In this document: positions 16,365-49,435 of the stretch, piece after piece
Position numbering within the stretch: the first letter of the stretch is position 1
Layout: every line of letters begins with the position of its first letter
Source of the DNA: Candidatus Berkelbacteria bacterium
Lineage (GTDB): Bacteria; Patescibacteriota; UBA1384; DTJR01
DNA: 64,000 bases
NCBI GenBank assembly: GCA_029865605.1
Contig: JAOUGE010000005.1
Span: 338-64,337, forward strand
Direction: 5' to 3'
Position numbers and translations under genes: made by a program
Notes under the pieces: model-generated
The model's input: the letters and a program-made list of their open reading frames with translations, nothing else
Database searches by the model: none
What the model was told of the DNA's origin: nothing

Positions 16365-16441
16365 AAATTTGTTTATAAGAAGGTCGAAGGCGGTCGGGGC
16401 TTGGGGCCGCCGACCGCCTGGTAGCTAGGGGGGAGCAGTTG

Positions 16442-16786
16442 TCAGAGGAGAGGGGATGGCATCCCGGCTGGAGCGGCTGAAGCGATTGCCCGGCTGATGG
16501 TCGCGGGAGTCCAGAGGGTTCCCTTGTCGAACCGTACTCTGCGGTCTCCGTGAACTGACCTGGTTGCGCGCAGCCAGGCGGATTCGACCTCGTTGGGTGG
16601 CGGCTCGTAGTGGAACAGTACTCTCACCACCCAAGCTGTCGCTGTCTGTGACCAGACATCAACGTCCGCTTCCAGTCTTCTCTCTTCTCGCCTCAGTGCA
16701 GCGATGAACTCAGCGAATACCTGTGTTACCGGCTCGGTTTGCACTTCCTCACTCCCCTTCCGTGAGTAGTACTCGCAATCTATCAA
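16442..16786 (-). CDS. hypothetical protein encoded in a short GC-rich island
   Basis: ORF of 114 aa in a locally GC-rich segment between miaA and comM. No recognisable motifs. Weak. Confidence 0.25.
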   Translation of the reverse strand: MIDCEYYSRKGSEEVQTEPVTQVFAEFIAALRREERRLEADVDVWSQTATAWVVRVLFHYEPPPNEVESAWLRATRSVHGDRRVRFDKGTLWTPATISRAIASAAPAGMPSPLL

Positions 16787-16823
16787 AAATCAGGTTATAC
16801 TTCAAGCGGAAAGGGCTGGTTTT

Positions 16824-18335
16824 ATGGAGAAACTCTCAATTATTAAGTCGGTTGTTGCAGTCGGGCTCGAGCCACAGGTAGTTGATGTTGAAGTTGATGT
16901 TGGAGCGGGACTACCGGGGTTGACGATTGTCGGCCTTCCCGACAAAGCAGTTGAGGAATCGAAGGAACGAGTCCGCCTCGCTTTGAAAAATTCCGGTTTT
17001 GACTTCCCGCAAAAGAAAATTGTCGTCAACCTTGCTCCGGCTGATGTCAAAAAGGAAGGCCCGGCTTATGATTTGCCGATTGCCGTTGGAACTTTAATTG
17101 CCTCAGGCATCATCAAACCAAAAGAAATTAATAAAACCATCTTTATCGGCGAGCTCTCATTAAGCGGGAAACTGCGGGCAACGAAAGGGATAATTCAGGC
17201 CTCAATTCTAGCGAAAAAAAAGAACCTTTCCCTTGTCTGCCCGATTCAGAACCAAGCCGAAGCCAATTTGATCTCGGGTATAGAAATCCTAGCTGCCGAA
17301 GATCTTAAATCAATGGTTGCGGCATTGCTTGCTGATGATACCAGGATTTTTTCAAAAACCACCGGCGTTAAAGATGTCCCAGAGCCCGACTACGGCGATT
17401 ATGATTTTCAAAATGTTGTTGGCCAGTCTCAAGCCAAGAGAGCGCTTGAGATCGCCGCCGCCGGCGGCCACAACGTGCTTTTGTCCGGCCCGCCCGGCGG
17501 CGGCAAAACACTCTTGTCTCGCAGTATTATCTCGATCCTGCCCCCGCTTGAGGAAGAGGAGCTTTTAGAGGCAACTAAAATTTATTCCGTGGCTGGCCTT
17601 TTAACCGAAGACGAGCCGATTATTATTCGTCGTCCCTTCCGCTCCCCCCATCACACAACCTCCGCCGTGGCAATAATCGGCGGCGGGACATATCCCAAGC
17701 CCGGTGAAATATCATTGGCCAACAAAGGTGTTTTATTTTTAGATGAATTCCCCGAATTTCCCCGCTCGGTTTTGGAAGCCTTGCGCCAGCCGCTTGAAGA
17801 TAAAGTGGTTACTGTTAGCCGGGCCCAAGCCACCTATCGTTTTCCGGCTGACTTTATTTTGGTCGCGGCTAAAAATCCCTGCCCCTGCGGTTTTCTGGGA
17901 GACGAGCATCACGAGTGTAAGTGTCCGGCGACCCAAATTCTAAGCTACGATCGTCGCGTTTCCGGCCCGCTTCTAGACAGGATAGATCTTTATCTTAATG
18001 TCGGGAAAATCCCTCTCAAGAAAATCCAGTCCTCACAAAAAGAAGAAAAATCAAGTGAGGTAAAAAAGAGAGTTATCAAAGCGAGGAGACTGCAAATCTC
18101 AAGGCAGGGGAAGCTAAATAGCCAGCTTAGTAAAAAGGATCTTAATAGATTCGCCGCTCTCAACGAAGAACAGGAAGAATTTTTGGAGGGAGCGGCAGAG
18201 AAGCTTGGCCTTTCGATGCGCGGTTTTATCAAAGTTTTAAGAATTTCAAGGACTATTGCCGACCTTGCCCAAAGCAAAAATGTTTTAATGGAGCATTTGG
18301 CTGAAGCTCTCCAATATCGCCAGCGCGAGCAGTAA
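16824..18335 (+). CDS. comM: Mg-chelatase-like AAA+ ATPase ComM/YifB family
   Basis: N-terminal Lon-like domain, Walker A GPPGGGKT, Walker B FLDEFPEF, C-terminal ChlI-like region. 503 aa. Confidence 0.88.
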   Translation: MEKLSIIKSVVAVGLEPQVVDVEVDVGAGLPGLTIVGLPDKAVEESKERVRLALKNSGFDFPQKKIVVNLAPADVKKEGPAYDLPIAVGTLIASGIIKPKEINKTIFIGELSLSGKLRATKGIIQASILAKKKNLSLVCPIQNQAEANLISGIEILAAEDLKSMVAALLADDTRIFSKTTGVKDVPEPDYGDYDFQNVVGQSQAKRALEIAAAGGHNVLLSGPPGGGKTLLSRSIISILPPLEEEELLEATKIYSVAGLLTEDEPIIIRRPFRSPHHTTSAVAIIGGGTYPKPGEISLANKGVLFLDEFPEFPRSVLEALRQPLEDKVVTVSRAQATYRFPADFILVAAKNPCPCGFLGDEHHECKCPATQILSYDRRVSGPLLDRIDLYLNVGKIPLKKIQSSQKEEKSSEVKKRVIKARRLQISRQGKLNSQLSKKDLNRFAALNEEQEEFLEGAAEKLGLSMRGFIKVLRISRTIADLAQSKNVLMEHLAEALQYRQREQ

Positions 18336-18337
18336 CT

Positions 18338-20713: not shown

Positions 20714-20746
20714 TTGTTATTGCAGAATTATTTACAATAGATATTA

Positions 20747-22880: not shown

Positions 22881-23129
22881 TTATTGAATACTATTTTTTA
22901 TTTGCTTTTTCAAATCTTCTTTTGGTTTATGTTCTTTGAGCTGTTTCTCTCTTTTGGCAGCGTCTTTTTTACTTAGGTAGCTTTCTAGGTAGACCAATTT
23001 GACAGGCAATTTAGATCTTGTTGATTTAACAAGTCCTTTTTTGTGTCTATTAATCCTGATTTTAACATCGGAGCATGAACCAATATACAGATCTCCGTTT
23101 GCGCATTTTAACGCATAAACTTGGTACAT
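22881..23129 (-). CDS. GIY-YIG nuclease superfamily protein (YhbQ/UPF0213-like); start trimmed to an internal Met to avoid the tRNA overlap
   Basis: MYQVYALKCANGDLYIGSCSDVKIRINRHKKG...KLVYLESYLSKKDAAKREKQLK shows the GIY...YIG...R...E motifs. The track start at 23165 would overlap tRNA-Cys. Confidence 0.55.
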   Translation of the reverse strand: MYQVYALKCANGDLYIGSCSDVKIRINRHKKGLVKSTRSKLPVKLVYLESYLSKKDAAKREKQLKEHKPKEDLKKQIKNSIQ

Positions 23130-23141
23130 AATTTTGGCTTT

Positions 23142-23215
23142 TGGAGGCATCGCCGGGATTTGCACCCGGGTAAACGGTTTTGCAGACCGTTGCCTGACTA
23201 CTCGGCCACGATGCC
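23142..23215 (-). tRNA. tRNA-Cys (GCA)
   Basis: Reverse complement GGCATCG...CGATGCC-T-CCA with anticodon loop CTGCAAA and a short variable loop. The T-loop TGCAAAT is slightly atypical. Confidence 0.65.
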
Positions 23216-23391
23216 AAAATTATGTTTGTTATTTAAGCTATCAAGCGGTTTTGTCCTGCGGAGCAGGATCTAGCTTTGCTACGACAGACCGTTGTGTAAC
23301 CACTCCACCACCAGGCCGACAGCCAAATCTTATCAGATTTAAGGCGAAAAAAAAGACCGCCTAAGCGGTATGGCGGCCCGGCTCGAGCCCC

Positions 23392-23619
23392 CTACGGGAA
23401 GTAGGGGAACTCGGCCGGGCCGTGGACGATCTTGACTTGGGCCAAGGCGCGGTTAATCACGCCGAAGGCCCAGTCGATCTGGGGCCAGATCACGAGCGTC
23501 AGGGACGCCCCGACTAAGGCCCAGACCCAGCACATGGGGCTGGGTGTTACGGGTTGGGCGGCTGCGAACGGCCACAGCGCCCACCACGCGAGAACGGCGA
23601 GAGCTGCCTTCCAGTTCAT
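23392..23619 (-). CDS. small GC-rich Trp-rich membrane protein
   Basis: AAGGAG ribosome-binding site 8 nt upstream of the ATG. Two hydrophobic segments. GC content far above the neighbouring sequence. Confidence 0.4.
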   Translation of the reverse strand: MNWKAALAVLAWWALWPFAAAQPVTPSPMCWVWALVGASLTLVIWPQIDWAFGVINRALAQVKIVHGPAEFPYFP

Positions 23620-23825
23620 CAGTTGGCTCCTTCCGCTTCAGGGCGCGGCTACCCTAATGTCTTATCAAACATCGCGCCTTCGGAGTTCTACCCCCTCCAG
23701 CGTGACCATTATTTATACCATATTTCTTGATAAAAGTCAAGTCCTGACAGGTTAAAGTTATCGGATCAAAGTTTTTTACTGGGAATATTTACAAAAATGT
23801 ATTTTAAGATACAATTAGACCTGTT

Positions 23826-23900
23826 GCGGGTGTCGTATAGCGGTTATTACACGTGCTTGCCAAGCACGAGAGGGCGGTTCAATTCCGCTCACCCGCTCCA
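23826..23900 (+). tRNA. tRNA-Gly (GCC)
   Basis: GCGGGTG paired with CACCCGC, anticodon loop CTTGCCAAG, T-arm GGCGGTTCAATTCCGCT, encoded TCCA. Confidence 0.85.
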
Positions 23901-24039
23901 ACGAGATGGCCTTTAGGCCATTTTTCGTTGGAGCACCCTGCCGAGAATTGAAGGCCGGACCCCGCCACGGCGGGGGAGGCGGGGTCGCGAAATTTACCAG
24001 CAGGTAAATATTTGTGACCAATTCCGCTCACCCGCTCCA
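23901..24039 (+). repeat. conserved structured element after a tRNA 3' end, copy 3
   Basis: Hairpin plus T-tract ATGGCC-TTTA-GGCCATTTTTCG, then GAGAATTGAAGGCCGG (antisense Gly T-loop), CCCCGCC-ACG-GCGGGGG, GAGGCGGGGTCGCGA, AAATTTACC-AGCA-GGTAAATATT, TGTGACC, and a 21-nt repeat CAATTCCGCTCACCCGCTCCA. Confidence 0.85.
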
Positions 24040-24044
24040 GCCAG

Positions 24045-24068
24045 AATCGCCGAAGGCGATTTTTTGTT
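24045..24068 (+). terminator. intrinsic terminator after element copy 3
   Basis: AATCGCC-GAAG-GCGATT followed by TTTTTGTTT. Confidence 0.6.
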
Positions 24069-24156
24069 TGTTAATTCTTGACTTATTTTGAAATAAAAAG
24101 TACTATTTTCTCTTAACCCATGAAGTCCCCGAAGATGGGTTCTTTATGGGTGATAT

Positions 24157-25038
24157 TTGACATTACATTCCGCGCCGCCCGCAGGGCGGCGCACCAAGGA
24201 GGAACCGCTTTATGATTTACCCCGCCGAGGCGGACGGCCGCCGGTCAACGACGAGTGGCGAGTGGAGTACTGCGACGGCCTATGCTGCGGCGTCTCGGCG
24301 ACATACGAGTTGCACTGGGCACTGACCGGTAACTGCTTCGATATCGAAGCCGAGATCGTCCGCCACGTCGCTCTAGCAGACAAGAGCGACGAGGGGTGGG
24401 TAACCGTTCTGACTCGTACCGACGAGATCAGAGCATTGGCGGACAGCTCCGTCGCGCAGCTTGAACACATCAACCCGCTGGCGCCGGTCGGCTCGCGCGT
24501 CATCCTTCCGTGGCCGCGGGTTGACTGCGTCATCGACCGCGACGGAACGACGTCGCCTTACGCTAACCCCTTCGTCGAAGTCACGGGGGAAGCCCTGGCA
24601 GGCCGCAAGAAGGAGCACTGCTTCTTCACCCATATCCGGCCTGACGATGATGGCTGGGTGGCCGCGGCGCTTCAGGGTCCCAAGGGAACGGGGATCGGCG
24701 TGCGCTCCAAGTACGACAAGCGGTTGCCCTTCTTCTCTGTCTGGTTCTCCCGCACGGGCAAGAAGGGCGTGGCGGCAATCGGCCTTGAGCCGGGTCCACT
24801 GCCGCTCGGCGCGGCAGAGACAGATCGACTCGAGATGAGGGCTGTCCTCGAGGGGGGAGAGGAGATGACGCGCATGACTGAACTCTACTTCCTCGATACT
24901 TCCGAGAGGATGACAACCTTCCTCGAGAGCAACGGGATGAGCGCTGGCTCGCTTCCCAAGCAGTTCGAGAAGATCGGCACCGACAAGAAGGACTGGCCGA
25001 CGCTCTGCAGGGCGGCTGGTATCAACGGCAAGCGCTAG
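24157..25038 (+). CDS. hypothetical protein in a GC-rich island (start uncertain; the track start is TTG)
   Basis: Open frame of 293 aa at about 60%+ GC. A separate 38-aa ORF with a perfect AAGGAGG ribosome-binding site starts at 24203 in another frame (see findings). Confidence 0.4.
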   Translation: MTLHSAPPAGRRTKEEPLYDLPRRGGRPPVNDEWRVEYCDGLCCGVSATYELHWALTGNCFDIEAEIVRHVALADKSDEGWVTVLTRTDEIRALADSSVAQLEHINPLAPVGSRVILPWPRVDCVIDRDGTTSPYANPFVEVTGEALAGRKKEHCFFTHIRPDDDGWVAAALQGPKGTGIGVRSKYDKRLPFFSVWFSRTGKKGVAAIGLEPGPLPLGAAETDRLEMRAVLEGGEEMTRMTELYFLDTSERMTTFLESNGMSAGSLPKQFEKIGTDKKDWPTLCRAAGINGKR

Positions 25039-25090
25039 GGCGGCCGAAGGCCGCCCCGGATCTGATCACATCTGTGCGGGGGAACTCACT

Positions 25091-25246
25091 ATGCCGCGTA
25101 AGCCCCGCAAGGTTATCGAGGAAGAAAATGCGTGCGAGCGCCGCTCGCGCCCCAGGCGCTACGTCTCGGCCCGCTCTTATGTCCATCATAAGGATTGGGA
25201 AGACGGAGGCCGACGTAAGGCCAAAGGAAAGGAGCATTCCTGGTGA
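25091..25246 (+). CDS. possible small basic protein (51 aa) inside the GC-rich island, not in the ORF track
   Basis: ATG 25091 to TGA 25246 encodes MPRKPRKVIEEENACERRSRPRRYVSARSY.... It ends just before a strong terminator. The overlapping track ORF 25074..25304 reads through that terminator. Confidence 0.2.
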   Translation: MPRKPRKVIEEENACERRSRPRRYVSARSYVHHKDWEDGGRRKAKGKEHSW

Positions 25247-25261
25247 GCACACGCTCACCCC

Positions 25262-25305
25262 CACGGGCCCCGCCATTGGCGGGGCCCGAGTTGTTTTTGT
25301 TTAAT
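25262..25305 (+). terminator. intrinsic terminator closing the GC-rich island
   Basis: GGGCCCCGCC-ATTG-GCGGGGCCC followed by GAGTTGTTTTTGTTT. Confidence 0.6.
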
Positions 25306-25433
25306 TTTTTGCTGGAGACTAGAGCCTAAAAGACTAGAGACTATTTTCCCCCCAAACAAACCCCGAAAATTAACCAAGAAAATGGGGTTTACCCCTTGAC
25401 AAGGTATTTTTTTTAAGTACACTAGTTGGCGTT

Positions 25434-25667
25434 ATGTTGAAAGCATTCTCCATCATAGAGTTGGTCACCGCGGTTTCGCTTATTGCAGCTGTGCTTTTGC
25501 AGCACCGCGGGACGGGACTCGGCGGGGCGTTTGCGTCGGAAGCGAACGCCTTCAGATCAAAAAGAGGGATTGAAAAATTTCTTTATAACTCGACGATCAC
25601 CATCGCCATTGTTTTGTGTGCGACCGTCCTAGCGCATCTTTTCTTGCGCCTCAAGCTTTCGGCCTAA
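25434..25667 (+). CDS. secG: preprotein translocase subunit SecG
   Basis: 77 aa with two transmembrane helices and the central LLQ...GLGGAF...F motif. Confidence 0.65.
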   Translation: MLKAFSIIELVTAVSLIAAVLLQHRGTGLGGAFASEANAFRSKRGIEKFLYNSTITIAIVLCATVLAHLFLRLKLSA

Positions 25668-25675
25668 ATTTCCAA

Positions 25676-27019
25676 ATGGAAATACCACTGCGCGGCATCA
25701 GTCGCGTCAAACCTACATCGCTTATCTACATCTTAAAAAACTGGAAGAATTGCCTTAATTTTTTGGAGAAAGCGGTCATAATTCTTTTGGCTCTCTTTGT
25801 CGTTTTGACTTCCTGGCGCTGGGTTTTGGCGGCGGGAGAGTTTAAGGGGATTGTGCCGCGTCGCGGAGGTAGTTTTATTGAAGGGGTCGCAGGATTAAAT
25901 GTTGACGGTTTTGACCCAGGGCGTTTGACCAAGTCAGCCTTGGTAAAAATCGACCCAAGCGGTCAAGTAATGGCCGACGTTGCCCAGAGTTGGGAAGTAT
26001 CTGCCGATAAGCTCACTTACAAGTTTGTTATTAATCCAAAATATTCCGCTTATGAGTTAGCGGACATTTTGTCTAAAAACCCGACTTATCTTGGTGGAGC
26101 TATGCCTGAGGTTTTAGATAACAGTATTTTGGCTTTCAAACTTGATGAACCGGATAATGATTTTTTGCAGAACTTTTCAAAACCTATTTTTCCCTATGGT
26201 CCCTACAAAATTGATAAAAAAACAAAAAATGAGATTCGCTTGAAACCCAACAAGGATTATCATCTCCAGTCTCCATATATCGAAAAATTTGTTATTCGGG
26301 GCTATCAGGACCAAACCGCGCTTGAGAAGGCGGCAAAAAAGAACAAGATTACTGCCGCTATAGGCCTTGAGAGCTTGCCCAAGGATTGGCAGCAAGCAAA
26401 GACTATCTTAAGCAAAAAACACATTCTTTTTGTTAACAGTTCAAAATCATATCTCAAAAAAACTGCCATCAGAGAAAAAATTCTAAACGGTGAGAAACCG
26501 GAGACCATTCAGACTCTTGATCTTCTTGAGGTTAACGGGAACGGTCAGGATCAGGAATACGAGGCGCTTAAAGAAAAGCTCAAAGCTTCCGGCATTGATT
26601 TGAAGGTGAGACAGATAGGTCTGAAGGATGCGCTTTTGCAGGAATTGCCGAAAAGAAATTACGATCTTCTCTATATCTTGGTTGATGTGGGCGTGGCTTC
26701 TGATCCGCGTCAGCTCTGGAGTTCAACTCAGAGAAGCGGCGAGGGGCAAAATTTTGCCGAACTGGCCAATGCCGATATTGATGATTTGACTTATGAGTAC
26801 GCAAAGACCGATGATCCAACCAAAAAAGCAACGATTGCAGAAAAAATTAACGAGCTTATCGCCCGCGAAAAAGTTGCTGTTGAGTATAAGAATTTGGAAT
26901 TTAACTATGCTGTTTCTCCTAAGTTGAAAGGTTTTACTATTCCACAAGCGTCTTATTGCGAGTCTGGCCGGTTTGATTTTGCTTCTTCGTGGTATTTCTA
27001 CGAGAAGAAACAGCGATAG
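25676..27019 (+). CDS. extracellular solute-binding protein, family 5 (peptide/nickel ABC transporter substrate-binding protein-like)
   Basis: N-terminal transmembrane/signal segment, then SBP_bac_5-like sequence (LVKIDPSGQVMADVAQSWEVSADKLTYKF). Start chosen at an internal Met after the overlap with secG. Confidence 0.5.
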   Translation: MEIPLRGISRVKPTSLIYILKNWKNCLNFLEKAVIILLALFVVLTSWRWVLAAGEFKGIVPRRGGSFIEGVAGLNVDGFDPGRLTKSALVKIDPSGQVMADVAQSWEVSADKLTYKFVINPKYSAYELADILSKNPTYLGGAMPEVLDNSILAFKLDEPDNDFLQNFSKPIFPYGPYKIDKKTKNEIRLKPNKDYHLQSPYIEKFVIRGYQDQTALEKAAKKNKITAAIGLESLPKDWQQAKTILSKKHILFVNSSKSYLKKTAIREKILNGEKPETIQTLDLLEVNGNGQDQEYEALKEKLKASGIDLKVRQIGLKDALLQELPKRNYDLLYILVDVGVASDPRQLWSSTQRSGEGQNFAELANADIDDLTYEYAKTDDPTKKATIAEKINELIAREKVAVEYKNLEFNYAVSPKLKGFTIPQASYCESGRFDFASSWYFYEKKQR

Positions 27020-27072
27020 CCATAGGGCCTCGACAATCTGTTCTATATCTAGTAAAATTTTGCTAAAACAAA

Positions 27073-27167
27073 GGGCAAGTGGTGAAATGGTATACACGCT
27101 AGCTTCAGGAGCTAGTGACCGCAAGGCCGTGGCTTCGCGAGGGTGGAACTCGCGAAAATACCTTGTA
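27073..27167 (+). pseudogene. tRNA-Leu-like pseudogene (degenerate T-loop and acceptor 3' strand)
   Basis: The 5' two-thirds is closely similar to the tRNA-Leu genes here (D-arm GTGGTGAAATGGTATACAC, anticodon loop TTCAGGA). The T-loop reads GGTGGAA and the 3' strand cannot pair with the 5' acceptor strand. Confidence 0.4.
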
Positions 27168-27172
27168 TTTGT

Positions 27173-27258
27173 GCCGAAGTGGTGGAATGGTAGACACGCA
27201 GCGTTCAGAGCGCTGTGAGCGCAAGCTCGTGAGAGTTCAAATCTCTCCTTCGGCACCA
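27173..27258 (+). tRNA. tRNA-Leu (CAG), type II with a long variable arm
   Basis: GCCGAAG paired with CTTCGGC, anticodon stem-loop CAGCG-TTCAGAG-CGCTG, variable arm, T-arm GAGAGTTCAAATCTCTC, ACCA. Confidence 0.8.
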
Positions 27259-27341
27259 TCTATAATTTCGAATCCGCAACATTAGTTTTTCGTTCCACCC
27301 GAAAAACGCTTGCCCACCAGAATTAAACTTTTAACTGATTT

Positions 27342-28178
27342 ATGGATCGAATTCCCTTTACCGTTACAATGCGCAAGGACCTTTTAAAAAGGGTCGATTC
27401 TTTAGTTGATGGCACGCAAATCAGAAATCGTTCCCACGCTCTTGAATCAATTGTTTCGAGCCATTTCAGGCCGAAGATTAAAAAAGCTCTTATCTTAGCC
27501 GGCGGCGAAGGGATTAAGATAAAGCCATTCACCTATGAGCTCCCCAAGACAATGCTGCCAGTTAAGGGACGGCCGATTTTTGAATACATCCTCGACCTGC
27601 TTCAGAAACAGGAGGTAAAAGAAATTTATGTAGCCATCGGCCATTTGGGCGGGAAAATCAAGGGGCAGTTTGGCGACGGGGCAAAGTACTCTGTGGATAT
27701 TACCTATCTTGAAGAAAAGGGTAGTCTCGGCACCGGCGGTGCCTTAAAGGCCGCTCTTCCCAAGATGGGCGACGACCCTTTCTTGATGATTTGGGGCGAT
27801 GAGTTGATTGATATTGATCTTGGGGACATGATTGATTTTCATATGACGCAAAAGCCGGTTATGACAATTGCCTTGACTTCTGTTTCTGACCCGACGGGCT
27901 ATGGGGCGGTCAAGCTAAGACGGGATATGGTTGTTGAACATATTGAGAAACCGGCAAAAACCAAGGATGTATCTCATCTTGTCAGTGCCGGCGTTCATGT
28001 TGTTGATCCGAGAATTGCCAGTTTTTTGCCTCGAAAGAAAACTTTTATGCTGGAAAGCGACATTATGTCTCAGCTGACTAAAAAAGGCCAGATCCGAGGT
28101 TATCTTTTTGAAGGACAGTGGTTTGATGTAGGAACTCCCGAAATTTACCAACGGGCAATAAGAGAGTGGAGAGGGTAA
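27342..28178 (+). CDS. sugar-phosphate nucleotidyltransferase with an N-terminal ribbon-helix-helix (CopG-like) domain
   Basis: Residues 1-45 FTVTMRKDLLKRVDSLV...RSHALESIV match the ribbon-helix-helix pattern. Then KALILAGGEGIKIKP...LPKTMLPVKGRP gives the nucleotidyltransferase G-loop. Confidence 0.6.
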   Translation: MDRIPFTVTMRKDLLKRVDSLVDGTQIRNRSHALESIVSSHFRPKIKKALILAGGEGIKIKPFTYELPKTMLPVKGRPIFEYILDLLQKQEVKEIYVAIGHLGGKIKGQFGDGAKYSVDITYLEEKGSLGTGGALKAALPKMGDDPFLMIWGDELIDIDLGDMIDFHMTQKPVMTIALTSVSDPTGYGAVKLRRDMVVEHIEKPAKTKDVSHLVSAGVHVVDPRIASFLPRKKTFMLESDIMSQLTKKGQIRGYLFEGQWFDVGTPEIYQRAIREWRG

Positions 28179-28282
28179 ATTCTGTATCTTGTATTTTGTA
28201 TCAGGTATCTAGTATTGAACGGTGAATACATGATACATGCTACTTGATACATGATACTTTTTCTTGTACAATCTAACCTGAT

Positions 28283-28368
28283 GCCGAGGTGGTGGAATTG
28301 GTATACACGATAGCTTGAGGAGCTATGCTCGCAAGAGCGTGCAGGTTCGAGTCCTGTCCTCGGCACCA
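28283..28368 (+). tRNA. tRNA-Leu (GAG), type II
   Basis: GCCGAGG paired with CCTCGGC, anticodon loop CTTGAGGA, variable arm, T-arm CAGGTTCGAGTCCTG, ACCA. Confidence 0.85.
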
Positions 28369-28523
28369 AGCAGAACTGCCCTTGTGGCAGTTTTTTGCTT
28401 GGTGCCCCGTGGACTCGAAGGCCGGACCTCGCCACGGCGGGGGTTCGAGGGGTGGCACCTGAGAAGGGTCGCGAGGCCCGCCAGCAGGCGGGAACTTGTG
28501 ACCGAGTCCTGTCCTCGGCACCA
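28369..28523 (+). repeat. conserved structured element after a tRNA 3' end, copy 4
   Basis: Hairpin plus T-tract ACTGCC-CTTG-TGGCAGTTTTTTG, then GGACTCGAAGGCCGG (antisense T-loop), CTCGCC-ACG-GCGGGG, a variant core with an insert (GAGG...GGGTCGCGA), CCCGCC-AGCA-GGCGGG, CTTGTGACC, and a 21-nt repeat CGAGTCCTGTCCTCGGCACCA. Confidence 0.85.
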
Positions 28524-28528
28524 CAAAG

Positions 28529-28552
28529 ATCCCGCTTTAGCGGGGTTTTTCT
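28529..28552 (+). terminator. intrinsic terminator after element copy 4
   Basis: CCCGC-TTTA-GCGGG followed by GTTTTTC. Confidence 0.6.
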
Positions 28553-28616
28553 ATGTATTAGGGTTGAAAAATTTTGTGAAAAAAGCTAAAATTACTCCAG
28601 AAGGTCGATAACTTAA

Positions 28617-28868
28617 ATGGAGATGAATATGGCAGACACAAAAATTGGTGTGATAACACACTACTTTGACAAAATTGGGGTTGGGATCATCAAGCTTGAG
28701 GCGCCGCTAAAGAAAGGCGAAACAATTAAGATTGGCGAGGTGGAACAAGTAGTTGATTCAATGCAGGTTGACCATAAGGATATTGATGAAGGCCAACCGG
28801 GTCAGGAAGTCGGCGTCAAAGTCAGCGCCAAGGTTCGCGAAGGCGAGGAAGTTTATAAGGTAGAGTAG
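28617..28868 (+). CDS. small beta-barrel protein resembling EF-Tu/IF2 domain 2 (function unknown)
   Basis: 83 aa. KIGVITHYFDKIGVGIIKLEAPLKKGETIKIGE...VGVKV resembles a translation-factor beta-barrel domain. Weak. Confidence 0.3.
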   Translation: MEMNMADTKIGVITHYFDKIGVGIIKLEAPLKKGETIKIGEVEQVVDSMQVDHKDIDEGQPGQEVGVKVSAKVREGEEVYKVE

Positions 28869-28930
28869 GGGGCGGCTAGCTTGGGCTAGAAGCTCATCGG
28901 CCTTTGGCTGACAGCGGGATTTTTAGATGT

Positions 28931-29005: not shown

Positions 29006-29030
29006 TCGGCTTGCATGAATGGTTTGAAAC

Positions 29031-29443: not shown

Positions 29444-29469
29444 CTTACCCCGCATGAGCGGGGTTCAAT

Positions 29470-31018: not shown

Positions 31019-31162
31019 TGCGGAGGGCTAAAATGCCCGGAAAGTTTGGAAAATAGCGCTTCTGTCCGCTTAAAGGGGTGGATAGGGCGCTGTTTTCAAA
31101 GGCAAGCAGCTTGACATTAAACCCGCTTCAGCGGGTCAAGTGCCTGTAAGGAGGCCGCTAAG

Positions 31163-33031
31163 ATGCGCCCGAAACTGGTAGTAGTTCTTACTGTCTTTGC
31201 GGCCGCGCTAGCGGCCGCCACGGTTAACGCAGACGTCGTCGTGGCCATTCATGGCCACTCGAACTTCTCGGATGGTATGAAGCCCCTGCGCGAGACGTAC
31301 GTCGAAATGTGCTCGGGCGGGGCCGAGGTGGCGATCGTAACCGACCATACCGAGGTGATCGATCTGCCGCAGATTCCCGCTTCTTTTCTCAAGATGGAGT
31401 TTGCCAGGTACAGCCATTGGGAAATGGCTTCTGGCGCACTCCTGAAGGAGGCGGGACTGGCCAACTGGAAGGCGGCCTACCGGAGTCTCCAGACCGAGAG
31501 GGTGGTAGTGATCCCGGCAATGGAGGTCGGGCTAGTAGCCCGAAAGACGGATGCGTTGTGGGATCGCCGCTGCCACTTCCTGTTCATCGGCGGGTCGGTC
31601 GAGGATAACACCTACGATCAAGTGATGCAGTGGGCATCGGCCTATACCACCGAGAAAGGGGCGGTGGAATGTCTCAAGAAACTCACCGCCCTGGCACAGG
31701 AGCGCGGTGCGTTGCTTGTTGCTGCTCATCCAACTAACTCAGGCTGGCTGATAGACTCTAGCCTTCTTGAGTTGGTGAACGGGATTGAGGCAATGAATCA
31801 CGATCTCCTCCCTGGCGCCAGCATAAGAGGAGATACTCCCGAGAACCTCCTCAAGACAATGCCGGCGGTTCCTTCTTCCCCTGTGGTAACGGCGGGGCTG
31901 GACTGGCACGGTGTCATCGGCCAGTCGGGATTCAGGGACATTTTCCGGCGCTTCACTGTCGTCCTGACAGACGAGAGGACACCAACGGGAATTGTGGGCG
32001 CTCTTCAAGCGCGGCGAAGTTATGCCGCTCTCGGCGACGCTCGGATCACCCGCGGCAAGGAGCTCATCGGCGGCGAGGTCGGCTTCGACCAGCCGTTTGA
32101 GATGGGCTTCGAGGGGGTAAGGGGCAACAAGGCCTGGCTCGTCTGCCGCTCGAGCGATAGTGCCTACCGCGAGTTCAAGCCAGTCTCGCTTAAGAGCGGC
32201 ACTCTCAACATCAAGAACCTCGGGAAGGCCCTGGGGCCAGCGATGACGTCCGGCGGCTGGATCGTCGTTGCTGCCCCTGCTGGCACGCCCCAGATCATCA
32301 CCTCCGGCATCAAGGTCAATCCGGCCGAAGCCGGCGGTGGCGAACCCTCCTTCGTCTTCTACGACAAGCCGCTCGGCCCTGGACAGCTGGCTAGGCCCAA
32401 GAAACCTGGCTTCTGGGATCAGGTCCGAGGGGGGCTGGGAGATATCGTTGCGGGAGCGCTCTCCGGTGGGATGGATCTACCTGGGATGCGCATCCGCATT
32501 ACTCCGGGCAGTAGCATGCCGGGCGAAGGCATACCGCAAGTGCCAGCCGGGGGCACAGTACCCCAGGGCGGGCAGGCCGGGCTCGGTGAGGATTTCAGCA
32601 ACTGGCCGATGGAGTATAGCGGGGTGCACCCCACCGCGCGGGGACAAACCCGCGATCAGGTTGTAGCGACCCTCTACGTGAACCCAGAGGCGCAGCAGGG
32701 GCTGCTTGCGTTCCAACTCAACGATCTGCAGCAGCAGATCCCAGTTACGCTGCCCGGCGTGTTCGGTAACGGAGGCTTCTGGCGATCCTCTTGGCAGTCG
32801 AAGCTCCCGTCTCGTCCGAGGTTTATGCATCCCCAACCCAGTTCACTCGGGGGGGGTCCGCGACCTGCCTGCCTTGAGGGTTGGCATCTCGGTCACAGTT
32901 ACAGGGATAAGAACGACCCCGCTACATACCACTTCGATCTGACTCTTAGAGCCCTTGCCGATGTACCTGAGCGTGTGCCTGTCGCGGTAGGGTACTGGGA
33001 GATGCGCATGGAGCTTCTCCGCGTCCGCTAG
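31163..33031 (+). CDS. secreted PHP-domain (polymerase/histidinol-phosphatase-like) protein with a Pro/Gly-rich C-terminal region, encoded in a GC-rich island
   Basis: AAGGAGG ribosome-binding site. Signal peptide MRPKLVVVLTVFAAALAAATVNA. PHP motif IHGHSNFSDG...VTDH...AAHP. About 60%+ GC against about 43% around it. Confidence 0.55.
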   Translation: MRPKLVVVLTVFAAALAAATVNADVVVAIHGHSNFSDGMKPLRETYVEMCSGGAEVAIVTDHTEVIDLPQIPASFLKMEFARYSHWEMASGALLKEAGLANWKAAYRSLQTERVVVIPAMEVGLVARKTDALWDRRCHFLFIGGSVEDNTYDQVMQWASAYTTEKGAVECLKKLTALAQERGALLVAAHPTNSGWLIDSSLLELVNGIEAMNHDLLPGASIRGDTPENLLKTMPAVPSSPVVTAGLDWHGVIGQSGFRDIFRRFTVVLTDERTPTGIVGALQARRSYAALGDARITRGKELIGGEVGFDQPFEMGFEGVRGNKAWLVCRSSDSAYREFKPVSLKSGTLNIKNLGKALGPAMTSGGWIVVAAPAGTPQIITSGIKVNPAEAGGGEPSFVFYDKPLGPGQLARPKKPGFWDQVRGGLGDIVAGALSGGMDLPGMRIRITPGSSMPGEGIPQVPAGGTVPQGGQAGLGEDFSNWPMEYSGVHPTARGQTRDQVVATLYVNPEAQQGLLAFQLNDLQQQIPVTLPGVFGNGGFWRSSWQSKLPSRPRFMHPQPSSLGGGPRPACLEGWHLGHSYRDKNDPATYHFDLTLRALADVPERVPVAVGYWEMRMELLRVR

Positions 33032-33060
33032 GCCAGCAGGCCGAGCGGACCTGAACTCAA

Positions 33061-33090
33061 GGGGGCCCTCACGGGCCCCCTTCGACGTTT
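33061..33090 (+). terminator. intrinsic terminator after the PHP-protein gene
   Basis: GGGGGCCC-TCAC-GGGCCCCC followed by TTCGACGTTT. Confidence 0.5.
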
Positions 33091-33144
33091 GCGCCAAGGC
33101 GCTATTTTTGCTAGAATAAGACCTCAATCAAATTAAAAAAAGCG

Positions 33145-38238: not shown

Positions 38239-38293
38239 AGCGACAGGGCGCCAGCGGCGCTGGCGCCCGTGGGGAGACAACGCAAGAATGGCT

Positions 38294-38503
38294 TCAGGCG
38301 GGGATAGGGCCTCGGTAGCCGGGGAAGATGCATCGAGAAGGCGGCCCGCCAAGAGCCCGAAGGGCCTCGTCATAGCGCTCAAGGTAACGCTCGTCTGCTC
38401 TTCGGAGCATTCTCTCGATCAGTGCTGGGTCATTACGGCGGCGCCTTCGGCGGCTGGTAGGCCCCTTCGTGGTCGTTGCCATTCCCATCACCTCCGAGAA
38501 CAT
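38294..38503 (-). CDS. hypothetical small Arg-rich protein in a GC-rich islet
   Basis: 69 aa with RRRRRR and helix-rich sequence. The coding call is weak. Confidence 0.2.
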   Translation of the reverse strand: MFSEVMGMATTTKGPTSRRRRRRNDPALIERMLRRADERYLERYDEALRALGGPPSRCIFPGYRGPIPA

Positions 38504-38524
38504 TATATCAGATGATGAGAGTGC

Positions 38525-39304
38525 TTAGGCAAAGTATTTTTCAACAAATAAACGGGCTTTTTTGAGGTTTGAGACTACCCTCTCGTCGCTTTGACCGGCA
38601 TCAACCGATTCGGGTACCAGTTCGATCACTATATAGCCCTGATATTTGAGCTCTTTTAGCTTTTTCAAAAATTCTTTAAGCGGCAGTTTGCCCTTGCCTG
38701 GCATGAGGTGGCAATCAGCAATCAGCTTCGGGTTGTCTGGGCGGCGTCTAAAATCGCTGTCGGACAGGTGAACGTGAATTAGTTTGCCGATAATTTTATC
38801 TAGCGCCCCGAGCAAATCACCCTTTGTTGTTCCGAAATGGCTGGTGTCAAAAACGAGACTCGGGAACTGATTAAAAGACCTGACAGTGTGGTTAGGCCTC
38901 CTCGAAGTACTATTTTCAAAGGCAACTCTAAGCGGTTTGGCCATTTTTATAATCGAATTTTTATTTTTTTTAACCCAAGCGAAAAAGCTCTCGTCCAAGT
39001 AATCGTGGGGATGAAAAACAATAATTTCCGCTTTGATTTCTTTGGCAATTTTGATGCTCTCTTCAAGCCTTTTTTTGGGATCGCCTCCCCAGCAGCCGGC
39101 GAATTCCATAGCCGAGTGGACCGACGGGATTTTCAATTTAAATTCTCTCATCAGCTGTTTAATGTAGGCTGGCTGCCTTTTATCCCAGCAATCATCAATT
39201 ACCAACTCAACGCCGGAATAGCCGGCTTTTTTTGCCAGCTCAAAAGTCCGGTTTAAGCCGTAATTGTATAGTGTGCCTGTGCCTAAAAGAATTCGGTTTT
39301 TCAT
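38525..39304 (-). CDS. sugar phosphate isomerase/epimerase (xylose-isomerase-like TIM barrel) family protein
   Basis: 259 aa with conserved His/Glu/Asp positions (FHPHD, HVHLSD, ELVPE) typical of the AP-endonuclease-2/TIM-barrel family. Confidence 0.5.
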   Translation of the reverse strand: MKNRILLGTGTLYNYGLNRTFELAKKAGYSGVELVIDDCWDKRQPAYIKQLMREFKLKIPSVHSAMEFAGCWGGDPKKRLEESIKIAKEIKAEIIVFHPHDYLDESFFAWVKKNKNSIIKMAKPLRVAFENSTSRRPNHTVRSFNQFPSLVFDTSHFGTTKGDLLGALDKIIGKLIHVHLSDSDFRRRPDNPKLIADCHLMPGKGKLPLKEFLKKLKELKYQGYIVIELVPESVDAGQSDERVVSNLKKARLFVEKYFA

Positions 39305-48147: not shown

Positions 48148-48475
48148 GCGGGTCCTGTCGGGCACCGTTTTCTCTCGGCCCGCGTCGGAATTCCCAGCGA
48201 GAATTCCGCGCTTAGCCTCGCCCTCACTCTTCCGCCTTCGGCGTAAACCATGCCCGTTCGGCACGCCTGCCGGAGGCAGGGCTCCGGATGACCTCGATAA
48301 AAGGTGCCCGCCACCCGCTGTTCGACAGGAAGGTTACAGTGAAATCTGGGAAATAAAAAATTGAATTTTCCGATAAATTTCTCTTATTTCGTGTTATCGC
48401 TTTTTATTTTTAGATAAAGAATATGTATAATTTGTCTAGCCGTCATCACCGGCGCTTGAAAGGAGGGAGCAGCTC

Positions 48476-49099
48476 GTGACAGATGAGATCGAGCGACAGT
48501 CTGCCGGCTTAAGAACGGCGCTGGCAGCACTTGTCTTCGTTGATCCGTCAGAGCTTGCGCCTGGGGGGCTGCACCCCGGGCTTGAGTTCCTCACCTGGAC
48601 CTCCGGCACGCCGGGCGAGGTTCTCCGGCAGATGATCAACGAAGGTGATGTTGACGACAAGACGGCCAAGCTTTTCCTCGACCTGATGATCTCGGTCTGG
48701 TCTGCCGGCTACAGCTCTTCCCCCGGGCTTGTTGTGAGAGGGGGGAATATTGTACCGGCAGAGTTGAGAGAGGGCGTTGCGAGTTACTGTGTGGATCACT
48801 TCAGCACTCTCCTCTCCCAGCTCATCGAGGACTTGCCGGAGCGTGTGGATGCGGCGACGAAGAGACGCGCTCGCACTCGTTCCCTCTCATTGCTTGCAGG
48901 TGAAGCGCCCCCCACGACTGACTGGCGGATGACAAAGGCTGGGAGTGCGAAGTGTCTCTTGATCTTGGGCCGGGTGGCTCGCCTCCGGCGCCATGCCGGG
49001 GTTTGGTTCGAGATCGAGTTAACAGGTCTGGGGGAACTTCTGGGTGTAGCCCAGCAGTCTCTCCCAGAGCGTTCCGTGGCCAGCCCGCCTGACGAATGA
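48476..49099 (+). CDS. hypothetical protein in a GC-rich island
   Basis: 207 aa at about 60%+ GC, preceded by about 300 nt of GC-rich non-coding sequence. No motif. Confidence 0.3.
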   Translation: MTDEIERQSAGLRTALAALVFVDPSELAPGGLHPGLEFLTWTSGTPGEVLRQMINEGDVDDKTAKLFLDLMISVWSAGYSSSPGLVVRGGNIVPAELREGVASYCVDHFSTLLSQLIEDLPERVDAATKRRARTRSLSLLAGEAPPTTDWRMTKAGSAKCLLILGRVARLRRHAGVWFEIELTGLGELLGVAQQSLPERSVASPPDE

Positions 49100-49435
49100 C
49101 GGGCTGGCCACCACTTTTTAAAAGTATGGGGGCTCTTAAAAGCATCGCCAAAGTCAGCTCCTTCCCCAAGAGTCAACCTTGCGCTTCGAAAGAAGCTGGA
49201 TTGAATATCTGCTTTATTTATAAACAGGATGAATGTTCAGAGTGTCTTTCAGAAAGCAAGGTTGAACTTTTGAGCGAGCTAGGGGGTTGGTTGTTAGGAT
49301 AGGGGGAACGCTTCGCAAGTAGGTCCCCTTATCCTAACGTGGGTCGGCAGGCTTTAGCCTGCCCTAATTTATGGATTTTTTAAAAATCGGTCCCGTGCGT
49401 TTGCTCGGATTAGGGAAACGGGTTAAGCTATAAGT

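Follow-up and report, generated by a model that had tools for sequence, protein, structure and literature searches.

GC-rich, compositionally foreign islets in a Candidatus Berkelbacteria contig and their weak link to tRNA genes

Introduction

Genomic islands linked to tRNA genes are stretches of 10-200 kb that are integrated by tyrosine recombinases. The flexible-genome islands of Prochlorococcus are also said to lie near tRNA genes. Integron cassettes form arrays next to attI and intI, and their attC sites are imperfect palindromes with RYYYAAC and GTTRRRY cores. As to composition, acquired and orphan bacterial genes are reportedly AT-richer than their host in most cases, while GC-biased gene conversion in bacteria is said to affect GC3 by only a few percent. 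How the tiny genomes of the CPR acquire and retain lineage-specific genes is poorly known.

Here we describe six short GC-rich segments (islets 1 to 6) in a contig of Candidatus Berkelbacteria (CPR), studied over a 64-kb stretch referred to as the window. With tRNA-linked islands they share deviant composition, variable presence (islet 4 excepted), orphan cargo and, in two cases out of six, a tRNA gene as neighbor. They are unlike such islands in their size (0.3-2 kb), in showing neither a detected integrase nor att direct repeats, in lying mostly away from tRNA genes or, in one case, on the tRNAs' 5' side instead of the 3' side, and in deviating toward higher GC. The analogy with Prochlorococcus extends to a small genome, a syntenic backbone with recurrent hot spots and strain-specific genes of no known function, some of them at tRNAs; however, the islets are single genes rather than multi-gene blocks, and their composition is strikingly different and remains so in old residents. 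The islets resemble integron cassettes in being small, in having a single and mostly orphan ORF, and in the hairpin-forming sequence behind each unit; unlike cassettes, they are dispersed 1-10 kb apart among housekeeping genes and have promoters of their own. An assignment to integron cassettes was rejected, the 3' hairpins being, by inspection, short perfect GC stems with T-runs and no R''/R' cores, and no intI appearing among the families listed. Finally, GC-biased gene conversion predicts a higher GC3 for genes that recombine more, which would fit fast-evolving variable loci, but the islets are offset by 20-40 GC3 points and at codon positions 1 and 2 as well, where the reported effects are of a few points.

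Composition and anatomy of the islets

The six islets are as follows.

Islet 1, 16380..16800, minus strand: GC-rich ORF in the divergent miaA|comM spacer; GC 59.6%, z 3.8.
Islet 2, 23340..23700, minus strand: gene of a 75-aa hydrophobic protein (23392-23619); GC 65% (65.3% over 23390-23640), z 4.4, GC3 0.87.
Islet 3, 24078..25310, plus strand: promoter-like site, 293-aa ORF, GC-rich tail and terminator; GC 61.5% (over 24100-25310), z 6.7.
Islet 4, 31100..33110, plus strand: gene of a putative 622-aa secreted PHP-family metal phosphoesterase (31163-33031); GC 61.6% (over 31150-33110), z 8.4, GC3 0.71.
Islet 5, 38240..38520, no strand assigned: 280-nt GC-rich block between the convergent alaS and TIM-barrel genes; GC 62.6%, z 4.0.
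Islet 6, 48150..49110, plus strand: two GC-rich blocks, 207-aa ORF (48476-49099) and terminator hairpin; GC 57.7% (over 48150-49100), z 4.6.

The window as a whole is 46.6% GC, and its backbone (islets, tRNAs and tRNA-tail elements masked) is 44.8%. Each islet was compared with 1,500-2,100 backbone windows of equal length, and all six exceed the maximum of these windows. In tetranucleotide usage, the concatenated islets reach a correlation of only r = 0.43 with the backbone, where backbone chunks of equal size never fall below 0.88, and the GC3 of islet ORFs ranges from 0.63 to 0.87, against a backbone median of 0.47. The only other GC peaks of comparable height, at 28251-28600 and 28901-29500, consist of tRNA genes and tail elements. 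The six GC-rich stretches are real and compositionally foreign. This bears out the original prediction of six GC-rich islets on a low-GC backbone (58-65% against 44.8% GC) and places them outside backbone variance by both measures (z 3.8-8.4 and the r values above); the ORFs that it listed are all present in the sequence. Codon positions 1 and 2 are affected along with GC3, whose offset amounts to 20-40 points.

Most islets are single promoter-ORF-terminator units set in intergenic spacers and encode orphan proteins. A promoter-like site and terminators mark islets 2 and 3, and Shine-Dalgarno sequences and hairpins mark islets 4 and 6, in keeping with the earlier statement that several islet ORFs have good ribosome-binding sites and terminators. 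The islet ORFs that have been called are singleton clusters in the protein collection, and no family common to different islets was found among the islet proteins. Neither the ORFs of islet 5 nor a second small ORF of islet 3 was called by any gene caller on record.

The ORF of islet 1 (16442-16786; GC1/2/3 =.62/.52/.63) encodes 114 aa, or 100 aa as called by gene finders, and is followed by a hairpin, GGCGGTCGG...CCGACCGCC, at about 16392-16420. Its product has no family match in profile searches and is a singleton cluster. The islet is absent from two relatives, L128 and L127; in the latter, comM is 85% identical and the miaA|comM spacer measures only 56 nt. In L130 the same spacer holds a GC-rich insert unrelated to islet 1.

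tRNA-Cys and tRNA-Gly both turn their 5' ends toward islet 2, which has a predicted intrinsic terminator at 23369-23356. At E <= 1, the only Rfam match on the islet is to anti-hemB; it lies at the edge and, with 23 bits where the cut-off is 49.5, is weak. An orthologue of the 75-aa gene exists in the closest relative, L127 (8041-8271, minus strand), with 59% identity and a GC3 of 0.88. The pair has a dN of 0.30 and a dS of 0.51; for backbone genes, dN is 0.08-0.10 in three of four genes and 0.23 in the fourth, with dS 1.5-2.4. Both orthologues sit at GC3 0.87-0.88 between flanks at dS 1.5-2.4. In L003 and L130 the spacer contains GC-rich ORFs unrelated to this gene, and in L128 it is empty, so that recurrent occupancy is seen both here (L003, L130, L127) and at miaA|comM (L130).

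Between tRNA-Gly and the start of islet 3, about 200 nt further on, lie a tail element, a terminator and a predicted promoter-like site (TTGACT-17-TACTAT, 24078-24106). The ORF (24157-25038, 293 aa, GC3 0.78) is followed by a GC-rich tail of some 270 nt with a strong predicted terminator at 25264-25288. The sole match of the protein among 5.8e9 proteins is itself, and its single-sequence AF2 model is unusable (pLDDT 32). Membership in DUF4432 (PF14486) was considered and rejected: the match, at 28.7 bits, is below the cut-off of 32.5 and covers only profile positions 172-283 of 304, at the C-terminal end. L003, L128 and L130 lack the islet: none of them has it between tRNA-Gly and the secG/SBP genes that follow.

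Islet 5 is absent from L125, where alaS and the TIM-barrel gene are 44 nt apart, and from L047. Islet 6 comprises two GC-rich blocks, 48150-48345 and 48440-49110, with an AT-rich promoter-like spacer between them. Its 207-aa ORF is preceded by a Shine-Dalgarno sequence, GAAAGGAGG, has a GC of 0.61 and a GC3 of 0.67-0.68, and gives way at the 3' end to a terminator hairpin, GTGGCCAGCCCG...CGGGCTGGCCAC, and a T-run. The protein found no family match in profile searches and no relative in viral contigs. The islet is missing from L047, L052, L053 and L054, in which greA directly follows PBP2. All told, islets 1, 3, 5 and 6 are absent at orthologous junctions across L127, L128, L003, L130, L125, L047 and L054.

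Islet 4, a syntenic gene that stays GC-rich

The gene in islet 4 has a Shine-Dalgarno sequence, TAAGGAGG, and a downstream hairpin, GGGGGCCC...GGGCCCCC. Its AF2 model reaches pLDDT > 90 over most of residues 20-390, and the top Foldseek matches are the PHP phosphoesterases 2anu and 3e38 (E 4e-8). The putative metal ligands H30, H32, D37, H62, E121, H138, H189, D247 and H249 are invariant or nearly so among 25 homologues. The Pfam PHP match falls below the cut-off (14.3 against 26.4 bits); the predicted fold and the conserved ligands are those of a metal-dependent phosphoesterase of the PHP family, to which the protein is assigned.

Syntenic orthologues, flanked by both S1 and DHH, occur in L038, L042 and L044. 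A further syntenic orthologue is found in L131, where contig ends cut the flanking genes; L040 and L041, as short contigs, show the context only in part. All are GC-rich relative to their own flanks. Rather than a strain-specific insertion, islet 4 is a syntenic gene whose GC-richness extends to all relatives examined. In four genomes the PHP genes have a GC3 of 0.66-0.71 beside S1 genes at 0.38-0.51, and they are 26% identical where the adjoining S1 is 68-69% identical.

The 622-aa protein matches only itself among 5.8e9 proteins, and its family counts only 32 representatives in 1.84e9 proteins. Genomic context was looked up for nine members, two of which lie in contigs of 69% and 67.5% GC (L132 and L133) and are native to them in composition (GC3 0.77-0.89). 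Protein P0003 of L132 is 34% identical to the window protein and scores 152 bits against it, where the syntenic Berkelbacteria copies score only 36-77 bits. Homologues outside the clade in contigs of 67.5-69% GC point to a possible import from GC-rich bacteria. The tree of the family is star-like, unrooted and without support values, and the reverse course, export from Berkelbacteria followed by amelioration in GC-rich bacteria, is also conceivable.

Origin and persistence of the islets

The islets are foreign in composition, four of the six are absent in relatives, and PHP homologues exist in GC-rich contigs; it is therefore fair to read them as foreign-looking genes gained on a small scale. 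The repeated horizontal insertion that was originally proposed holds to this extent, but not for islet 4, which is syntenic in relatives, and the gene of islet 2 is common to L127. Likewise, the islet proteins are mostly orphans as expected, with the exception of the PHP protein and its homologues outside the clade. The ages differ as well: islets 1, 3, 5 and 6 look lineage-specific, and islets 2 and 4 look like older residents that are still GC-rich.

We propose that the islets represent a flexible layer of small, self-contained accessory genes, typically one promoter-ORF-terminator unit each, which in this clade would come and go, and diverge rapidly, within a restricted number of spacers (miaA|comM, tRNA-Cys|tRNA-Gly, tRNA-Gly|secG, S1|DHH, alaS|ftsA and PBP2|greA). 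Their ultimate source would most likely be DNA from GC-rich bacteria, entering by integrase-independent (illegitimate) recombination rather than at tRNA attachment sites. Once resident, islet genes appear to evolve several-fold faster at the protein level than the backbone and to keep their GC, including GC3, beyond what neutral amelioration would leave. Orthologues with synonymously saturated flanks still have a GC3 of 0.66-0.88; therefore, something keeps the composition high. One could envision this additional force as selection on secreted or membrane proteins rich in Ala, Gly, Pro and Arg, or as GC-biased repair where such variable loci recombine frequently. For the explanation taken as a whole, our confidence and our doubt are about equal. 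The distinctness of composition, the anatomy of the units, the pattern of presence and absence, the synteny and GC content of islet 4 and the homologues in GC-rich contigs are matters of observation, as is the fact that neither att repeats nor an integrase was detected; the direction of transfer, the mode of insertion and the force that maintains GC are inferences.

Several points weigh against this proposal. What would suggest a foreign origin for islets 1, 3, 5 and 6 is their composition and their absence in relatives; no donor or outside homologue was found for any of the four. The relatives are distant, the best having a comM protein 85% identical and dS > 1.5, and therefore absence in them could reflect loss. 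A single old acquisition of the PHP gene, with orthologues at 25% identity, demands a GC-maintaining force beyond GC-biased gene conversion as reported in bacteria, whose effects on GC3 amount to a few percent where the offset here is 25-40 points. Finally, recurrent use of the same spacers is hard to account for without a site-specific mechanism.

The same facts can be read vertically. The islets could be old lineage-specific genes, evolving so fast that homology has been lost, that a locus-specific process keeps GC-rich in situ and that are absent wherever they were deleted. Such a process might be gene conversion with a strong GC bias at hot spots of recombination, or selection acting on the composition of the mRNA or the protein. 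Such an origin fits the persistence of GC3 despite saturated flanks, the synteny and high GC of the islet 4 gene wherever a relative has the locus, the islet 2 gene shared with L127 (59% identity where comM is at 85%), the GC-rich DNA in the same spacers of several genomes and the host-like AT-rich promoters of the islets, and fast divergence would explain why the same spacer differs in content. However, it requires precise deletions (down to the 56-nt miaA|comM spacer of L127, the 44-nt gap of L125 and the passage from PBP2 into greA in four genomes), it leaves aside the natively composed PHP homologues in contigs of 67.5-69% GC, and no bacterial process is known to raise GC3 locally by 25-40 points. 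We regard it as somewhat unlikely.

A bolder version, in our opinion rather unlikely, is that the clade maintains a compartment of fast-evolving genes actively held at 58-67% GC (GC3 up to 0.88) in a genome of 40-46% GC by a locus-specific process, for instance GC-biased conversion of unusual strength at hot spots of recombination, or targeted mutagenesis or repair. In a related idea, the tail elements would represent a novel type of mobile element, small and structured, whose homing to tRNA 3' ends would contribute to the variable hot spots beside tRNAs. If a locus-specific process of this sort operates, composition would mark a mechanism and not the fading scar of a transfer.

Some of the short segments may not be coding at all, namely islet 5, the first block of islet 6 and the 3' tail of islet 3, which might be structured ncRNAs or regulatory or terminator regions rather than genes. 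The coding status of islet 5 is doubtful. It begins with a palindrome, GGGCGCCAGCG/CGCTGGCGCCC, the protein collection contains neither its 69-aa ORF on the minus strand nor its 75-aa ORF on the plus strand, and it lacks codon-position periodicity (GC1/2/3 =.63/.60/.66). The first block of islet 6 (48150-48345) is probably non-coding. In all three segments, periodicity is absent, the ORFs are called by no pipeline on record, and palindromes and hairpins are present; in the islet 3 tail (25040-25310), moreover, the folding z is -2.8 to -3.6. Folding is, however, unremarkable in islet 5 (z -1.1 to -1.3) and weak in the first block of islet 6 (-1.4 to -2.2); Rfam gave no match other than tRNAs at gathering scores in the whole window, and nothing at E <= 1 on islet 3, including its tail, in a scan of 23100-29500. 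That these segments are structured RNAs, or regulatory or terminator regions, strikes us as distinctly improbable.

tRNA-tail elements

The original prediction was of small-scale horizontal insertion at or near tRNA loci, for which the elements at tRNA ends might serve as att-like landing pads. The elements concerned are the following.

Tail element after tRNA-Gly, 23929..24039, plus strand, identified with covariance model R1.
Other tRNA-tail copies: 6467-6593 (minus strand), 7549-7659, 28396-28523, 29134-29240, 29315-29422 and 34672-34781.

Eight copies exist in the window and score 67-109 bits with the model; six of them terminate in 18 nt that repeat the 3' end of the preceding tRNA without a mismatch. 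Within the family, 90% of cells pair and compensatory changes affect 26 of 31 pairs. At E <= 1, Rfam yielded nothing on the elements at 23929-24039, 28396-28523, 29134-29240 and 29315-29422. The tail elements form a structured family of their own, with covarying stems, and do not behave as recombination scars.

Three features can be cited in favor of the landing-pad idea: tRNA-Gly and its tail element are closely followed by islet 3, both islet and element being absent from L003, L128 and L130; GC-rich DNA occurs repeatedly in the tRNA-Cys|tRNA-Gly spacer; and the elements end in an exact tRNA 3'-end copy, like attR sites. Yet the conserved, covarying structure is unlike a recombination scar, and seven of the eight copies in the window, along with all copies found in relatives, have no adjoining islet. 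When the 3'-terminal 18-mer of each of the nine tRNAs was searched for with up to three mismatches, no tRNA-derived direct repeats were found to bound islets; extra 18-nt copies occur only at tail-element ends, once each, and no third copy bounds any islet. No integrase or transposase appears in the precomputed Pfam lists for 14-35 kb or, for 35 further window ORFs, among the 25 families listed of 47 matched, and no recombinase domain was found in the islet ORFs. Nor does geography help. Two islets do physically abut tRNAs, as had been noted, but islet 2 is at the 5' side of both and only islet 3 is on a 3' side, some distance behind its tRNA, while islets 1, 4, 5 and 6 are not next to tRNAs at all. 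The tRNA link of the islets is weak, and recombination at tRNA ends is largely refuted for five of the six. An att-like landing pad is possible only at islet 3, where the joint absence of element and islet from relatives would be compatible with such a role without arguing positively for it. As a general account of the islets, the idea appears very improbable.

The notion of chimeric joins or contaminating GC-rich reads, which might come to mind with a metagenome-assembled genome and islets that have no homologues elsewhere, is practically negligible: the contig was recovered in several assemblies and the islets are therefore not chimeras, the ENA (MEGAHIT) and Logan contigs showing the same arrangement over the parts covered with two mismatches each to the window, the exact islet proteins being recorded also from an NCBI/JGI contig of 67,279 bp, orthologues of islets 2 and 4 lying at the same loci in other samples, and each islet requiring two chimeric junctions where the actual junctions fall on promoters and terminators.

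Implications

A compositional islet next to a tRNA need not be an integrase-mediated island, and the present case calls for caution in this respect. With more GC than their host, these orphan single-gene units depart from the rule that acquired and orphan genes are usually AT-rich, and the two GC-rich residents with synonymously saturated flanks provide a concrete case for or against locus-specific GC-maintaining forces in bacteria. If our reading of the islets as flexible accessory units is confirmed, their composition would be a simple means of recognizing the flexible gene pool of these bacteria, including secreted and membrane proteins that are likely to act at the cell surface.

Composition and integrity of the islets

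The original prediction that GC-rich islets punctuate a low-GC backbone was borne out. GC content is 46.6% in the whole window and 44.8% in the backbone, with islets, tRNAs and tRNA-tail elements masked. The six segments listed here reach 57.7-65.3%, with z scores of 3.8-8.4 against backbone windows of equal length, and every one lies above the maximum of 1,500-2,100 such windows.

Islets in the window
16380-16800, islet 1 (114-aa protein)
23390-23640, islet 2 (75-aa protein)
24100-25310, islet 3 (293-aa protein)
31150-33110, islet 4 (622-aa PHP protein)
38240-38520, islet 5
48150-49100, islet 6 (207-aa protein)

With composition normalised, the tetranucleotide usage of the islets taken together correlates with that of the backbone at r = 0.43, as against at least 0.88 for equal-size backbone chunks, and GC3 is 0.63-0.87 in islet ORFs versus a median of 0.47 in backbone ORFs. 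Because window GC, tetranucleotide usage and GC3 agree, the islets fall outside the normal variance of the genome. Islets 3, 4 and 6 are more alike (r 0.42-0.52) than they are like backbone pieces (0.30 +/- 0.08), at a level below that of backbone pieces among themselves (0.64 +/- 0.07). The remaining GC peaks of comparable height, 28251-28600 and 28901-29500, are tRNA genes with their tail elements.

Several other compositional features came to light. Islet 2 (23340-23700) is much more stably folded than its own dinucleotide shuffles on both strands (z -5.3 to -6.2), as is part of islet 3 (24300-24700) on the plus strand (z -4.4; backbone coding controls near 0); terminator hairpins account for only part of this stability. 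A mildly GC-rich (55%) 67-aa ORF at 14612-14815(-), between ksgA and a 211-aa gene and given by gene callers in a 62-aa version, could be a seventh, weaker islet beyond the range first described. Two variably present genes, a sugar-phosphate isomerase/epimerase-like TIM-barrel gene at 38525-39304(-) and a cation-efflux-like gene at 49436-50338(+), have a backbone-like GC content of 44%; accessory status alone therefore does not entail high GC in this clade.

An assembly chimera can be ruled out for practical purposes. Several assemblies agree: a 68-kb ENA MEGAHIT contig has the same arrangement over 14-35 kb of the window and a 21.9-kb Logan contig over 14-28.5 kb, each with 2 mismatches, and exact islet proteins are also recorded for a 67,279-bp NCBI/JGI contig. 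Misassembly would require two chimeric joins per islet, and orthologues of two islets occupy the same loci in other samples. The NCBI annotation of the 622-aa protein is that of a hypothetical protein from a Candidatus Berkelbacteria MAG.

Distribution among relatives

Syntenic relatives, found by way of their NTP-transferase, MreB and ComM proteins or of PHP family members, gave the following picture at the islet junctions (L numbers denote related loci).

Islet 1: absent in L127 (ComM 85% identical, 56-nt spacer) and in L128
Islet 2: orthologue of the 75-aa gene in L127, 59% identical
Islet 3: absent in L003, L128 and L130, where the tRNA-Gly tail element is absent too
Islet 4: present in L038, L042 and L044 in the order S1, PHP, 157-166-aa gene, DHH
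Islet 5: absent in L125 (44 nt from alaS to the TIM-barrel gene) and in L047
Islet 6: absent, like the cation-efflux gene beside it, from L047, L052, L053 and L054, in which greA comes straight after PBP2

Islet 4 is also present with the same neighbours in L131, cut at the contig ends, and on the short contigs L040 and L041 in partial context, with AT-rich flanks and a homologous upstream spacer. By these junctions, four islets behave as lineage-specific, islet 2 extends to the closest relative and islet 4 to the whole clade. The proposal of repeated small-scale horizontal insertions at or near tRNA loci holds in part: gain of foreign-looking DNA is a fair reading for islets 1, 3, 5 and 6, islet 4 is not specific to one strain, and the link with tRNA loci is weak (see below).

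Some of the spacers hold other material in relatives. The islet 1 spacer of L130 contains an unrelated insert of 55% GC, with z at most 1.5 against the islet 1 protein (Smith-Waterman with shuffling). The tRNA-Cys/tRNA-Gly spacer carries unrelated GC-rich ORFs in L003 (95 aa) and L130 (181-208 aa, 67% GC) and none in L128. The same hot spots in relatives hold other GC-rich orphan genes: the L130 ORF (L130/L042 16345-16971 / 3334-3960) contains a zinc ribbon, and a pectate-lyase-like gene of 66% GC lies directly 3' of the PHP gene in L041 (1746-2219).

tRNA genes and tail elements

The tail elements are GC-rich, structured stretches of roughly 110 nt located 3' of tRNA genes.

Tail elements in the window
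6467-6593(-)
7549-7659
23929-24039
28396-28523
29134-29240
29315-29422
34672-34781
Tail elements in relatives
L003 10992-11099
L038 2256-2366
L042 6094-6200 and 7526-7620
L130 865-992

They form a conserved three-way junction. The 3' strand of the closing helix repeats the final 18-25 nt of the upstream tRNA exactly, CCA included; the complementary 5' strand begins with TGG and resembles a primer-binding site. Next come two hairpins with covariation, of which one has a conserved CAGCAG loop. RNAalifold found compensatory changes in 16 of 31 pairs among eight copies. The covariance model of the elements, R1, detects 8 copies in the window, more after tRNAs in L003, L038, L042/L130, L043 and L044, and weak matches in a Kerfeldbacteria locus. 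In an alignment of the 18 distinct hits that was itself fitted to the model, pairing occurs in 90% of cells, compared with 64% in shuffles and 31-43% with partners slid, and double changes occur in 26 of 31 pairs. Rfam at gathering thresholds returned tRNAs only, and at E up to 1 in 23100-29500 neither islet 3 nor the four tail elements of that stretch had a match; the core pattern of the elements had no match in viral contigs.

It had been suggested that these elements serve as att-like landing pads for the islets, an idea that found no support. Six of the nine tRNA genes have an exact copy of their own last 18 nt 118-155 nt downstream, and the window contains no further copies, so that no pair of tRNA-derived repeats encloses an islet. 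In relatives the elements follow different tRNAs and precede ordinary backbone genes, while in the window the tRNA-Gly element is the only copy with an islet behind it. Neither integrase nor transposase was detected among the islet ORFs, in the Pfam lists for 14-35 kb or among the 25 families listed, of 47 matched, for 35 other ORFs. For islet 3 alone a landing pad is conceivable, though unlikely. The placement of the elements after different tRNAs suggests that they are mobile, and they may represent a new class of RNA or mobile element.

Other possible traces of rearrangement surround the tRNA genes. A 40-nt core (family D2) at 28466-28505, in the tail element 3' of tRNA-Leu(GAG), recurs with 100% identity at 29366-29405, in the tandem second element after tRNA-Phe. 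The tRNA-specific arms of the two elements differ, a sign that the core was recently copied between the loci or subject to gene conversion. The intact tRNA-Cys at 23142-23215(-) adjoins a 94-aa GIY-YIG endonuclease-like ORF (22881-23165(-)) with a weak match to group I intron endonucleases, and 70 nt upstream, at 23285-23319, is a remnant similar to the 5' half of tRNA-Cys from L003. The GIY-YIG gene is found in L127 and L128 too; L003 and L130 are without it. The region 22881-23330 has the appearance of a tRNA-Cys gene replaced in association with a homing endonuclease. A second 5' tRNA remnant beside an intact copy, a truncated tRNA-Leu-like sequence (27073-27135; 24.9 bits against Rfam tRNA, below cut-off, with no ARAGORN call), lies 40 nt upstream of tRNA-Leu(CAG).

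Islet genes and their products

The larger islets are monocistronic units, with the following signals.

Islet 2, minus strand: gene for a 75-aa hydrophobic protein, GC3 0.87, then a terminator
Islet 3, 24078-24106: promoter-like site TTGACT-17-TACTAT
Islet 3: 293-aa ORF, GC3 0.78
Islet 3, 25264-25288: terminator of 11 bp, all GC
Islet 4: Shine-Dalgarno site TAAGGAGG, 622-aa ORF, GC hairpin downstream
Islet 6: AT-rich promoter-like spacer, GAAAGGAGG site, 207-aa ORF, 12-bp hairpin then a T-run

Codon periodicity is missing from islet 5, from the opening 200 nt of islet 6 and from the final 270 nt of islet 3, and no gene catalogue lists the ORFs there; these stretches may therefore be non-coding.

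Islet 4 encodes the sole islet protein with a firm assignment, a member of the PHP phosphoesterase family with a signal-peptide-like N-terminus. An exhaustive HMMER search of 1.84 billion proteins yielded 32 representatives of this family; when 25 of them are aligned, the metal ligands of the PHP fold prove invariant or nearly so. The AF2 model built on the 25-homologue alignment predicts a PHP barrel and a beta-sandwich, with pLDDT above 90 over most of residues 20-390 and below 50 in the C-terminal 200 residues; among PDB entries it comes closest to the PHP phosphoesterases 2anu and 3e38. Scans of the islet ORFs against Pfam, NCBIfam, PADLOC and PHROGs gave only weak PHP and below-threshold DUF4432 matches, to the 622-aa and 293-aa proteins respectively, and no match for the others. 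The single-sequence AF2 model of the 293-aa protein (pLDDT 32) is unusable.

Outside homologues were found for islet 4; for the other islets, the searches made of 5.8e9 proteins, viral contigs and plasmids revealed none. The word-seeded search of the 5.8e9 proteins returned only self matches for the 622-aa and 293-aa proteins, viral contigs had no match to the 293-aa or 207-aa proteins, and plasmids none to the 293-aa protein (tblastn). All called islet ORFs form singleton clusters found in this organism only, and an all-against-all BLASTP comparison of 136 GC-rich ORFs, drawn from the window and from 15 related loci, uncovered no common families beyond PHP and the 75-aa gene.

Known types of mobile DNA were considered as well. 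Integron cassettes are ruled out (no array, no attC on inspection and no intI among the families listed), as is a prophage or defence island (no PHROG or PADLOC match). A diversity-generating retroelement was considered for this pattern of GC-rich, fast-evolving DNA; among 25 of 47 families listed there was no reverse transcriptase except an RNase H-like RVT_3.

Origin and persistence of the high GC content

Genomic context was looked up for 9 of the 32 PHP family members, and two of them reside on contigs that are GC-rich throughout: L132, at 69% GC, whose neighbouring genes have GC3 of 0.83-0.91 and include one for a 1001-aa GH5 enzyme, and L133, at 67.5%. Both PHP genes are native in composition to their contigs. 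The L132 protein is 34% identical to the window PHP protein (152 bits), compared with 36-77 bits for the syntenic Berkelbacteria copies, and in a star-like neighbour-joining tree, computed without support values, the two sequences from GC-rich genomes are interleaved with the Berkelbacteria ones. These findings favour import of the PHP gene from GC-rich bacteria, the direction falling short of proof.

How the high GC content has lasted is a separate question. The PHP orthologues have GC of 55-63% and GC3 of 0.66-0.71, against GC3 of 0.38-0.51 in the adjoining S1 genes of the four genomes compared, and are only about 25-28% identical among themselves as proteins, against 68-69% for S1. Between the window and L127, four backbone genes show dS of 1.5-2.4, with dN of 0.08-0.10 in three and 0.23 in the other; for the 75-aa gene dN is 0.30, and GC3 stays at 0.87-0.88 in both genomes. 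By a two-state estimate of our own, synonymous divergence this large should erase about 70-80% of the GC3 excess, leaving about 0.52-0.58. Either exchange was much more recent than the backbone divergence, or a GC-keeping force acts on the islet genes. Recent exchange of the genes of islets 2 and 4 does not sit easily with how far their proteins have diverged.

One could imagine from such persistence that the islets are old genes, passed down vertically and evolving extremely fast, which are held GC-rich in situ, and that their absences in relatives are deletions. We regard this main rival as rather unlikely. The account that we prefer, and to which we give about an even chance, is that the islets are flexible single-gene accessory units. 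Their DNA would ultimately be foreign and GC-rich, would have inserted into a few permissive spacers without a site-specific recombinase, and would then have evolved fast while a GC-favouring force kept its composition. The two explanations part mainly over the frequency with which new DNA comes into the genome.

We found nothing specific on GC-rich islets or tRNA-tail elements in the CPR literature. What we describe is a variant of genomic islets already known, unusual in its direction, toward higher GC, in its scale, that of single genes, and in the persistence of its signal.
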